Assembly: GCA_031255715.1 (NCBI GenBank)
Contig: JAIRRZ010000021.1
Location: 286-64,285 of the forward strand
Length of the DNA: 64,000 bases
From: Puniceicoccales bacterium
GTDB lineage: Bacteria; Verrucomicrobiota; Verrucomicrobiia; Opitutales; LL51
Reading direction: 5' to 3'
Shown: piece by piece, positions 34,637-36,757 of the stretch
How positions within the stretch are numbered: the stretch's first letter is position 1
Layout of the letters: each line of letters starts with the position of its first letter
Translations under genes and position numbers: made by a program
Notes under the pieces: generated by a model
What the model was told of the DNA's origin: nothing
Database searches by the model: none
Seen by the model: only the letters and a program-made list of their open reading frames with translations

Positions 34637-36757
34637 TTACCACTCAGTGCTGGAATCACTTTCATGCGTATCGCTGGAACCACTTTCACACGTATTGCTG
34701 GGTTTTTCATGTGTATTGCGGGTAATCACGCTCCCAACTTGGTCTTTGTTTTTTGAGGATACAAGTAATGACCGTTTGGTTCTGAATTGTTGGGTTCCCG
34801 ATTGTTGGGTTCCCGATTGTCGGGTTCCCGACTGTTGGGTTCCCAATCGTCGGGTTCCCGATCGTTGGGTTCCAATTTGTTGGTTCGTTAATGCTCGTGA
34901 AATGGCGCCTTGTTCAACTGTCGGAAACGCTCCTCCCTCATCATCATAGCCTTCGTTTGCTAAGGACATAGGTCTCGATCGTCGGGTTCCCGATTGTTGG
35001 GTTCCCAATCGTCGGGTTCCCGATCGTTGGGTTCCAATTTGTTGATCGCCGCCCATTGACGTGAGTGCTCGTGAAATGGCGCCTTGTTCAATTGTCGGAA
35101 ACGCTCCTCCCTCATCATCATAGCCTTCGTTTGCTAAGGACATAGGTCTCGATCGTCGGGTTTCCGATTGTTGGGTTCCCAATCGTCGGGTTCTCGATTG
35201 TTGGGTTCCCAATCGTCGGGTTCCCGATTGTTGAGTTCCCAATCGTCGGGTTCTCGATTGTTGGGTTCCCAATCGTCGGGTTCCCGATTGTTGGGTTCCC
35301 AATCGTCGATCGCCGAATGTTCGTGAAATGGCGCCTTGTTCAATTGTCGGAAACGCTTCTCCCTCATCATCATAGCCTTCGTTTGCTAAGGACATAGGTC
35401 TCGATCGTCGGGTTCCCGATTGTTGGGTTCCCAATCGTTGGGTTCCCGATTGTTGGGTTCCCGATCGTCGGGTTCCAATTTGTTGGTCGCCGCCCATTGA
35501 CGTAAGTGTTCGTGAAATGGCGCCTTGTTCAATTGTCGAAAACGCTCCTCCCTCATCATCATAGCCTTCGTTTGCTAAGGACATAGGTCTCGATCGTTGG
35601 GTTCCCGATTGTTGGGTTCCCAATCGTCGGGTTCCAATTTGTTGGTCGCCGCCCATTGACGTAAGTGTTCGTGAAATGTCGCCTTGATCAATTGTCGGAA
35701 ACGCTTTTTCCTCATCATTATAGCCTCCGTTTGCTAAGGACATAGGTAATGATCGTTGGGTTCCAATTTGTTGATCGCCGCCCATTGACGTGAGTGTTCG
35801 TGAAATGGCGCCTTGTTCAATTGCCGAAGACGCTTCTGTCGAAGACGCTTCTTCCTCATCATCACAGCTTTCATTTTCTGAGGACATAGGTAAATCGCCG
35901 TCCTTTGACGTGAATGCTTGTGAAGTGGCGCCTTGCTTATTTATCGGAAATGCTTTTTCCTCATCATCACAGCCTTCGTTTGCTAAGGACATAGGTCCCG
36001 ATCGTTGGGTTCCAATTTGTTGGTCACCGCCCCTTGACATGAATGCTTGTGAAATGGCGCCTTGCTTATTTATCGGAAACGCTTTTTCCTCATGATTATA
36101 GCCTCCATTTGCTAAGGATATAGGCAATGATCGTTGGGCTCCAAATCGGTAGTCTTTAAAAATTTGGGCTTTCCTCAATAGGGGATTCAATTTGTATTGA
36201 TTTATCAAGTTTAGAATTTTCTGATGATTGTTTTGTATTTTCTCTCGTAGGCTGGGTATCATGACATGATTATCCGTCTCACTACACTCAATACAGCCAT
36301 ACTTAACTGCCCCTTCCACTATTGACCTGGGGGAATAGTTATCTTTATTTACTATATCTGGGTCAGCATTATTCTGCAATAGCTTTTCTACAACTAATAA
36401 GGATGGACTGACCACGATTACGACACAATGCAATGGTGTATTTCCATCTCCATTTTGCGCATTGACGTCGGCTCCTGCCCTGCACAATAACTCGACCATT
36501 TCCGGACTTTTTGCATAATGCAATGGTGTATTGCCATGCCTATCAACTATGTTTGACTTGCTATTTTTATTAAGTAAGGAGGCCACCTTATCTATATCAT
36601 CATATTGTACCGCACTACAGAGCTGGAAACAATAGTTTCCATCATTTAAGTATATAGATGAGAAACTCTTGGGGGAAAATGCGAAACTTCCCAATAGAAG
36701 ACTTCCAAATGCAATACTTTTCAATGATTTATTCTTAAAAACGTTTACCTTTTCCAT
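34637..36757 (-). CDS. Secreted ankyrin-repeat protein 2 (706 aa) with a nested-repeat tail and an acidic ...STEW C-terminus
   Basis: The signal peptide is MEKVNVFKNKSLKSIAFGSLLLGSFAFS. ANK units read GNTPLHYAKSPEMVELLCRAGADVNAQNGDGNTPLH. About 450 aa of repeats follow. Confidence 0.9.
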   Translation of the reverse strand: MEKVNVFKNKSLKSIAFGSLLLGSFAFSPKSFSSIYLNDGNYCFQLCSAVQYDDIDKVASLLNKNSKSNIVDRHGNTPLHYAKSPEMVELLCRAGADVNAQNGDGNTPLHCVVIVVSPSLLVVEKLLQNNADPDIVNKDNYSPRSIVEGAVKYGCIECSETDNHVMIPSLREKIQNNHQKILNLINQYKLNPLLRKAQIFKDYRFGAQRSLPISLANGGYNHEEKAFPINKQGAISQAFMSRGGDQQIGTQRSGPMSLANEGCDDEEKAFPINKQGATSQAFTSKDGDLPMSSENESCDDEEEASSTEASSAIEQGAISRTLTSMGGDQQIGTQRSLPMSLANGGYNDEEKAFPTIDQGDISRTLTSMGGDQQIGTRRLGTQQSGTQRSRPMSLANEGYDDEGGAFSTIEQGAISRTLTSMGGDQQIGTRRSGTQQSGTQRLGTQQSGTRRSRPMSLANEGYDDEGEAFPTIEQGAISRTFGDRRLGTQQSGTRRLGTQQSRTRRLGTQQSGTRRLGTQQSRTRRLGTQQSETRRSRPMSLANEGYDDEGGAFPTIEQGAISRALTSMGGDQQIGTQRSGTRRLGTQQSGTRRSRPMSLANEGYDDEGGAFPTVEQGAISRALTNQQIGTQRSGTRRLGTQQSGTRQSGTQQSGTQQFRTKRSLLVSSKNKDQVGSVITRNTHEKPSNTCESGSSDTHESDSSTEW
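34760..36110. repeat. Nested coding repeats: 15/30-bp micro-repeats (GTQQS/GTRRL) inside variable macro-repeats of about 158-252 bp
   Basis: The macro-repeat landmark TCATCATCATAGCC occurs at 34939, 35112, 35364 and 35553, with variants at 35711 and 35960. The spacing varies with the micro-repeat count. Confidence 0.85.

Follow-up and report, generated by a model that had tools for sequence, protein, structure and literature searches.

An ankyrin-repeat protein from a Puniceicoccales bacterium with a nested, in-frame tandem-repeat tail and a possible role in partner binding

The 64,000-nucleotide stretch of DNA from a Puniceicoccales bacterium analysed here (the window) contains an ankyrin-repeat (ANK) gene, an open reading frame (ORF) at 34637-36757 on the minus strand that stays open for 706 aa and whose product carries a long nested tandem-repeat tail. 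We named this gene ANK2, with reference to the near-identical leaders on its neighbours ANK1 and ANK3. Its product is identical to NCBI MDR0418165.1, annotated as 'MAG: ankyrin repeat domain-containing protein [Puniceicoccales bacterium]', where MAG stands for metagenome-assembled genome, and a single 69.9-kb contig is the sole public carrier of the gene. The tail is built of eight macro-units, in each of which an acidic core may be followed by copies of a basic pentapeptide, and it has expanded recently and in frame. We assign a probability of about one half to the explanation that ANK2 is exported and that its disordered, multivalent acidic-core tail, jointly with the ankyrin domain, would bind an extracytoplasmic partner, most plausibly a protein of the host.

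Macro-units were delimited by the landmark P[MI]S[LS][AE]N, which occurs eight times in the tail, at aa 212, 255, 290, 338, 391, 454, 538 and 596. The resulting spacings are 129, 105, 144, 159, 189, 252 and 174 bp, every one a multiple of 3. Each macro-unit opens with an acidic core of about 36 aa (PMSLANEGYDDEGGAFPTIEQGAISR...), followed by 0-10 copies of the pentapeptide GT(Q/R)(Q/R)(S/L), which is encoded by the 15-bp unit GGAACCCRACRATYG (Table 1). When at most one mismatch was allowed, this 15-mer matched 30 times in the window against 0.03 matches expected from shuffles, and every match fell within the ANK2 tail on the coding strand. Tandem Repeats Finder, applied at both scales as the original prediction had proposed, recovered periods of 15 and 30 bp nested in periods of 129, 159, 174, 189 and 426 bp, with a top score of 1375. 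The arrangement of '5 x 30 bp' suggested earlier was found at 35152-35308 (period 30, 5.2 copies, 94% matches). Within this block a super-period of 60 bp is also visible, marked by an RTRRL variant that recurs every fourth unit and by a 59-bp exact repeat at an offset of 60. By the repeat finder, the landmark spacings and the 15-mer count, the two-level repeat tail of the original prediction is real and in frame, and it in fact has three levels, with periods of 15, 30 and 60 bp inside units of 105-252 bp. Two of the four spacings given there (252 and 189 bp) were exact and the other two were off by one, 173 and 158 bp being 174 and 159 bp. The repeats also extend further than the predicted limit of 36110, as the array reaches 36145 and includes three older, diverged units upstream that had been missed.

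An EGYDDE patch had been described for every unit. It is exact in units 5-8, while units 1-4 carry the variants GGYNHE, EGCDDE, ESCDDE and GGYNDE, two of which have Cys in place of Tyr; the motif form of the tail can be written as (E/G)G(Y/C)(D/N)(D/H)E. Eight core positions (P1, S3, N6, E12, A15, Q21, G22 and S25) are invariant across all 8 units.

Five residues, namely G (65), Q (54), S (51), T (48) and R (46), account for 58% of the 456 tail residues, in agreement with the richness in Arg, Ser, Thr and Gln noted earlier, and hydrophobic residues make up 16%. The mean hydropathy of the tail is 0.385, below the Uversky boundary of 0.414 and in the range of disordered proteins. Its net charge per residue is 0.00, with local charge ranging between -0.33 and +0.27, and acidic, aromatic-containing cores with an isoelectric point (pI) of about 4 alternate with basic pentapeptide arrays with a pI of about 12; the pI is 7.96 for the tail and 8.25 for whole ANK2. 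AlphaFold modelling of one unit with the 8-unit alignment yielded a predicted local distance difference test score (pLDDT) of 56.7 and a predicted template modelling score (pTM) of 0.14, with a lone 8-residue helix (AISRALTS), which we regard as weak evidence. The composition is of the disordered-protein type, and the unit model has no confident fold. The tail is probably intrinsically disordered. It also contains 20 [ST]Q and 21 R-x-x-[ST] motifs, and it is from composition alone that 'surface' and 'phosphorylation module', the labels used in the original prediction, might be suggested for it.

At the other end of the protein, the leader is basic and then hydrophobic, and by eye we interpret it as either a Sec signal or a signal-anchor; it ends in ...LLLGSFAFS-P/H, and no lipobox Cys is present in it. 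At aa 46-135, the Pfam families Ank (53.1 bits, cut-off 21.1), Ank_2 (41.0, cut-off 27.3) and Ank_4 (43.0, cut-off 22.7) were detected, with Ank_5 likewise over its gathering score. At least two ANK repeats thus lie above gathering thresholds, the criterion for ankyrin-repeat proteins in the Pfam Ank clan. NCBIfam gave generic ANK matches far under the cut-offs. Leader and domain together suggest that ANK2 is probably an exported, eukaryote-facing ankyrin protein.

The divergence among units records how the array was formed. The cores of units 5-8 differ from one another by 3-10 nt per 90 nt, and those of units 1-3 differ from units 5-8 by 12-34 nt. Because divergence is low in units 5-8 and high in units 1-3, the tail follows a gradient from old units at its N-terminal side to recent units at its C-terminal side, and the latest duplication events are at the C-terminal end. 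The in-frame expansion is recent and occurred by slippage or unequal recombination; one reading frame alone is open across the tail, with stops in the others. The micro-units vary at essentially three sites, all of them second codon positions (CAA/CGA, CAA/CGA and TCG/TTG), and they comprise the types QQS, RRL, QRS, RRS, QRL and RQS. Because a unit of the xRS type stands at both the start and the end of each micro-array, growth of the micro-arrays was internal. In the simplest history, a 15-bp unit would have given rise to a QQS/RRL pair, and the 30-bp pair and later a 60-bp block would have been amplified by slippage or unequal exchange.

Homologues of the tail were sought in several collections. 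An exhaustive HMMER search (phmmer) of the tail against 1.84 billion cluster representatives found no homologue, only ANK2 itself and 38 weak matches, nearly all of them to the micro-repeat part of the query. The 7 weak matches that were inspected were rejected as unrelated pentapeptide low-complexity arrays (GTQAA, GTREI, GVNQS, GTPQL etc.) with no acidic core. Pfam at E<=10 contained no family for the tail, the pentapeptide profile PF00805 included; a profile search of PDB sequences gave no match to it, and GTDB species genomes and JGI metagenome contigs scanned with ANK2 peptides and the leader contained no relative. The word-index protein search with full-length ANK2 returned ANK2 itself, ANK1 and generic ANK proteins, and it missed ANK3, which points to limited sensitivity; its top matches P0003-P0006, P0008, P0010 and P0012 were GC-rich and unrelated and were dismissed as relatives. 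A profile search with the leader only returned nothing and also missed the query proteins, a limitation of the tool that we counted as no evidence. As judged from these comparisons, the ANK2 tail is a sequence orphan in all collections searched.

Other Puniceicoccales MAGs are related to this one, their ValRS being 71-86% identical, and in those that were fetched (ValRS 79-86% identical) the gene order around ValRS differs. A tblastn search of two related MAG loci (L002 and L004) revealed no ANK cluster or leader, which is weak evidence in view of the fragmentary assemblies. These MAGs also encode a Myb DNA-binding-domain protein, taken as eukaryote-like (L003 10569-11156 (+)), and large acidic, coiled-coil or proline-rich proteins by ValRS (L002 2-3577 (-); L004 1-2760 (-)), within which the contigs end.

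The relatives closest at hand are ANK1 and ANK3, which flank ANK2 in a head-to-tail arrangement on the minus strand. Among the three, leaders are 71-79% identical and ANK regions 41-48% identical; the tails gave no significant alignment, and a homology test of the post-repeat C-termini was not significant. All three tails are polar, those of ANK1 and ANK3 being strongly basic (pI 11.6 and 12.0) and that of ANK2 near neutral. The body of ANK3 is itself composed of ANK super-repeats of about 438 bp (146 aa). A fourth ankyrin-repeat ORF (46-954 (+), 302 aa, GTG start) lies at the left window edge and does not have the shared leader. An upstream cassette of about 180 bp, consisting of TTGACA-16-TA(A/G)TAT and a 5' leader, is common to all three ANK genes (34346-34636, 36758-37046 and 41730-41900), and the hairpin downstream of ANK2, AAAGCACCCCATTGGGGTGCTTT, has an identical copy downstream of ANK3 at 36915-36937. 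With its own promoter-like and terminator-like sites, ANK2 has the layout of an independent transcription unit; Rfam detected an RNA element neither within the gene nor close by. The ANK genes have been duplicated, or are undergoing homogenisation, as whole cassettes. The contrast between leaders that are 71-79% identical and tails that cannot be aligned is evidence of a much higher turnover in the tails than in the 5' cassette, and it supports the earlier description of the tail as rapidly evolving. For the label 'hypervariable', which implies differences among strains, the tail is at most a candidate.

A conserved 5' region joined to divergent repeats is also found in size-variable surface families. 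In the multigene families of Vlp/Vsa lipoproteins of Mycoplasma, the 5' region and leader are highly conserved, whereas the in-frame tandem repeats at the C-terminus diverge and are resized by slippage, and ANK1-3 resemble the Vlp families in their conserved 5' cassette and leader and in their divergent in-frame C-terminal repeats. If ANK1-3 were envelope or surface proteins of this type, variation in tail length could shield the cell or help it to escape from phage, predators or recognition by a host; ANK2 has a Sec-type leader, and with in-frame units slippage would alter size without a frameshift. However, no lipobox Cys follows the ANK2 leader (FAFS-P), and Pfam shows no recognisable C-terminal anchor or sorting domain. 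ANK2 further differs from Vlp/Vsa in its ankyrin domain, and such domains typically serve protein-protein interaction with eukaryotic targets rather than shielding. ANK2 is known from one genome, with no second strain to compare, and we consider a surface family of this type unlikely. No phase-variable promoter tract was seen in the ANK promoter-like region, for which no dedicated search was made.

In a further alternative, which overlaps with the others, the order or number of macro- and micro-units would be an artefact of assembling short metagenome reads across repeats. A Logan contig of the same strain from an independent assembly (L001; SRR14710884, k=31) is 100% identical to 30020-33038 of the window and breaks exactly within the 72-bp repeat array of ANK1, and one contig alone carries ANK2. 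Exact-product look-ups for ANK2 and ANK3 returned no record, leaving no second assembly to compare. Against an artefact, large-k short-read assembly could resolve the array because the longest exact repeat in the tail is only 80 bp, and each macro-unit has private substitutions. Moreover, the ORF is in frame with a consistent divergence gradient, and even if their exact number were wrong, the units are clearly there. An artefact thus seems decidedly unlikely. Short-k assemblies are fragmented by repeat tails, which may explain the absence of such genes from related MAGs.

Among known systems, AnkA of Anaplasma phagocytophilum would be the closest analogue of ANK2, by architecture only. In AnkA, EPIYA-type motifs are multiplied by direct repeats on the C-terminal side of the ANK repeats, inter-strain alignments of the 3' repeats are uncertain and linked to recombination, and secretion by the VirB/VirD type IV system has been suggested (PMC4220824). 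A hydrophilic C-terminal type IV signal has been described for it (PMC3417381), and its C-terminal domain has recently been reported to contain short linear mimicry motifs that are actin- and WAVE-directed (bioRxiv 10.64898/2026.07.31.742066). Like ANK2, AnkA has N-terminal ankyrin repeats and then a hydrophilic region with a repeated short Tyr-containing acidic motif. In contrast, the motif in ANK2 is EGYDDE (Cys in 2 units) and not EPIYA, a Sec-type N-terminal leader takes the place of a C-terminal type IV signal, and ANK2 comes from a verrucomicrobial lineage. No sequence similarity to AnkA was found among the matches listed by the word-index and HMMER searches, AnkA itself not being compared directly. 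Nested pentapeptide arrays such as those of ANK2 are not known from AnkA.

This likeness raises the alternative that ANK2 is an AnkA/EPIYA-type phospho-effector or nucleomodulin, in which the eight EGYDDE-type cores would be Tyr-phosphorylation/SH2-docking sites, the arrays rich in TQ and R-x-x-T would act as modules for Ser/Thr kinases or for nuclear targeting, and duplication would have multiplied them in the manner of AnkA, CagA and Tarp. The AnkA precedent (PMC4220824), the succession of ANK repeats and C-terminal direct repeats with Tyr in an acidic context, and the [ST]Q and R-x-x-[ST] motifs of the tail are all compatible with such a role. Nevertheless, a classical EPIYA (E-P-I-Y-A) was not seen in the tail by eye, looser EPIYA variants being neither defined nor scanned. 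The Tyr of the patch is changed to Cys in units 2 and 3, and ANK2 has a Sec leader, whereas AnkA was suggested as a VirB/VirD type IV substrate (PMC4220824). The host may also lack canonical Tyr kinases, and together with the lack of AnkA likeness among the matches these points make a phospho-effector very unlikely in our estimate.

Other bacterial repeat proteins were compared in the same way. TRP32, TRP47 and TRP120 of Ehrlichia chaffeensis are secreted effectors with tandem repeats that are rich in Ser and acidic residues and variable in number and size, and Ank200 of Ehrlichia combines ANK repeats with acidic terminal domains (PMC3417381). The Ehrlichia TRPs have a pI of about 4 and are type I substrates whose C-terminal signal is not cleaved and which lack a Sec leader, whereas ANK2 has a basic overall pI and a Sec-type leader, its tail is net neutral with alternating charge blocks, and HMMER found no homology between them. 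In Wolbachia, an intracellular bacterium, ANK genes such as WD0550 and WD0766 have polymorphic repeats that separate closely related strains (PMC3563639, citing Riegler et al. 2012). The repeats of ANK2 differ in forming a non-ANK disordered tail, known from one strain only. Variation in Wolbachia lies largely in ANK-repeat number and in separate variable-number tandem-repeat (VNTR) loci. Pentapeptide-repeat proteins (PF00805) share the 5-residue periodicity of ANK2, but the ANK2 pentads are without a central hydrophobic residue in each; its arrays are short (0-10 units) and interrupted, so a beta-helix does not fit. Tested homology, motif, secretion signal and overall charge would place ANK2 outside the AnkA, Ehrlichia and Wolbachia families. 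We class it with a recognisable kind, the eukaryote-like ANK proteins of bacteria that carry disordered tandem-repeat tails.

In the explanation that we prefer, ANK2 would be an ankyrin-repeat protein that is specific to its lineage and probably routed into the Sec export pathway. Three tandem duplicates would have kept the promoter, leader and terminator cassette while each grew a different C-terminal tandem-repeat tail. The tail of ANK2 would display, in disordered and multivalent form, an acidic linear motif of about 25 residues (PMSLANEGYDDEGGAFPTIEQGAISR, perhaps forming one short helix), with the basic arrays acting as spacers whose length shifts by replication slippage or unequal recombination. 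Tail and ankyrin domain would bind their partner beyond the bacterial cytoplasm, most plausibly a host protein, and changes in repeat number would tune valency and spacing. The source bacterium is probably eukaryote-associated. In favour of this explanation are also the surroundings of the gene, where lineage-specific proteins with leaders or repeats are common (the two ANK paralogues, the fourth ANK protein at 46-954, a Pro-rich protein with a WASP-VCA-like end and a leader-bearing protein with PSPSPSP repeats), and the architectural precedents of AnkA, the Ehrlichia TRPs and Ank200.

Several points weigh against this explanation. The copy number of the tail comes from one metagenome assembly, and export, host contact and partner binding are predictions from sequence; the leader, as read by eye, could be an uncleaved membrane anchor. 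No host-delivery secretion system is visible in the window, where a truncated GspE/PilB-like ATPase is the sole candidate, and neither host nor habitat of the bacterium was found via SRA/IMG identifiers or the literature. The patch Tyr is kept in 6/8 units. A whole-protein AlphaFold model made without an alignment had to be set aside as evidence of disorder, with a pLDDT of 32 throughout, the ANK domain included. Finally, nearly every codon difference that separates the units is non-synonymous (2-9 non-synonymous codons, with 0-1 synonymous), an excess that fits relaxed constraint as well as functional diversification; because the copies are inherited together, diversifying selection and relaxed constraint are inseparable here.

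The last of these points leads to the alternative of neutral low-complexity growth, in which the tail would be a slippage-prone, disordered and functionally indifferent appendage or spacer, specific function would lie in the ankyrin domain alone, and the repeats would mirror nothing but the mechanics of mutation. Besides the non-synonymous differences, such growth would account for the decay of the last micro-units and first macro-units and for a tail that is missing from all relatives searched, and similar GTxxx arrays in unrelated proteins imply that arrays of this kind arise easily. On the other hand, the frame is open over 1.4 kb with stops in other frames, and a repeat tail of similar polar composition is kept by all three paralogues. 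The eight invariant core positions persist even in old units, and acidic blocks still alternate strictly with basic ones. We consider neutral growth somewhat unlikely.

If the tail is a multivalent host-binding module, as the partner-binding explanation holds, ANK2 would extend the Anaplasma/Ehrlichia strategy of ankyrin repeats combined with disordered repeated motifs to an uncultured verrucomicrobial lineage with a Sec leader. It would also be a clean natural example of nested slippage building and retuning modules, with one promoter-leader cassette and three unrelated tails. The array of 15-bp units is usable as a strain-typing marker by repeat number (VNTR) in the source organism. As the evidence stands, the tail of ANK2 is neatly organised but otherwise ordinary among orphan repeat tails.

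Table 1 Features of ANK2, its paralogues and their flanking elements in the window
Feature	Position	Strand	Basis
ANK2 coding sequence, 706 aa plus stop	34637..36757	(-)	ORF call and identity to MDR0418165.1
N-terminal Sec-type leader (putative) MEKVNVFKNKSLKSIAFGSLLLGSFAFS, aa 1-28	36674..36757	(-)	By inspection; 71-79% identical in ANK1/ANK3
Ankyrin-repeat domain, 2-3 repeats, aa 46-135	36353..36622	(-)	Pfam
Linker, aa 136-204; helices in low-confidence model	36146..36352	(-)	AlphaFold
Nested repeat tail, aa 205-663; 8 macro-units, 31 pentapeptide micro-units	34769..36145	(-)	
Macro-unit 1, 43 aa, 1 micro-unit; diverged, GGYNHE	35996..36124	(-)	
Macro-unit 2, 35 aa, 0 micro-units; Cys for Tyr	35891..35995	(-)	
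Macro-unit 3, 48 aa, 1 micro-unit; Cys for Tyr; 5-aa insertion	35747..35890	(-)	
Macro-unit 4, 53 aa, 3 micro-units	35588..35746	(-)	
Macro-unit 5, 63 aa, 5 micro-units	35399..35587	(-)	
Macro-unit 6, 84 aa, 10 micro-units plus 1 degenerate (GDRRL); 30-bp/60-bp super-periods	35147..35398	(-)	
Macro-unit 7, 58 aa, 4 micro-units	34973..35146	(-)	
Macro-unit 8, 68 aa, 7 micro-units, last ones decaying	34769..34972	(-)	
Non-repeated C-terminal segment, aa 664-706; acidic, Ser-rich end ...CESGSSDTHESDSSTEW-COOH	34640..34768	(-)	
Promoter-like TTGACA-16-TAATAT in the ~180-bp 5' cassette of ANK2	36809..36836	(-)	
Terminator-like hairpin AAAGCACCCCATTGGGGTGCTTT plus T-run, downstream of the ANK2 stop	34503..34525	(-)	
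Paralogue ANK1, 545 aa: same leader, 4-6 ANK repeats, basic tail of 24-aa repeats (72-bp x 5.6)	32708..34345	(-)	
Paralogue ANK3, 1560 aa: same leader, many ANK repeats, basic tail of 19-aa repeats (57-bp x 3.3)	37047..41729	(-)	

A neighbouring gene shares a feature of the ANK2 C-terminus. At 27366-30014 (+) the window encodes an 882-aa protein without a family match, with motifs at 29484-29546, 29628-29720, 29799-29858 and 29907-30011. Motif inspection showed a 31-Pro run, two WH2-like motifs (...NRLKSV and ...SNLKKV), an amphipathic, connector-like helix LQDILQKAAAIREAV and an acidic end ...SDSDESDSEKSESTAW. These elements occur in the same order as in the VCA region of N-WASP, and a motif-level alignment to an N-WASP sequence gave z=4.3 (1/500 shuffles reaches the score). 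Pfam (WH2) and PDB sequence searches gave no support for a VCA-like end, and a weak homologue of the protein (25% identity, E=8e-9) adjoins ValRS in a related MAG. A C-terminal Trp occurs in 2/34 window ORFs of at least 200 aa, namely ANK2 and the 882-aa protein, and both ends are Ser/Asp/Glu-rich and of the form ...S-T-x-W: HESDSSTEW in ANK2 (34640-34690 (-)) and SEKSESTAW in the 882-aa protein (29964-30011 (+)). The ANK2 end reads ...DTHESDSSTEW, and no V (WH2) or C (connector) element was seen in ANK2. Speculatively, the 882-aa protein could be a WASP-type nucleation-promoting-factor mimic, and the acidic-Trp end of ANK2, perhaps with the eight cores, could be a multivalent ligand of Arp2/3 or another A-motif receptor, spaced by the basic arrays; a shared secretion or sorting signal is the other option. 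We hold this idea to be a long shot. To our knowledge, a WASP-type mimic in Verrucomicrobiota would be the first known, and the 882-aa protein may be a more interesting lead than the ANK2 tail.

The rest of the window is ordinary bacterial chromosome, with ValRS, ProRS, MutS, PNPase, RpoD, DnaG, PPDK, one tRNA and SRP RNA, and lineage-specific proteins without a family are scattered among these housekeeping genes. The GspE/PilB-like ATPase lies at 30222-31376 (+); it has 384 aa, is N-terminally truncated (GspE profile positions 105-482 of 486) and scores under the equivalog cut-offs, and no gsp or pil genes adjoin it. Another protein without a family match, at 48052-49473 (+), has 473 aa, begins with a hydrophobic leader and ends in a tail made up of four SSSMPNSTATPSPSPSPVLG repeats (PSPSPSP type), and the 2.3 kb or so that follow it (49474-51790) are without an ORF of at least 200 aa. 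A 382-aa protein at 57441-58589 (-) has a leader and no family match; its end, ...GGCDSSDTH, recalls the CESGSSDTHES of ANK2, a resemblance that may be due to chance.

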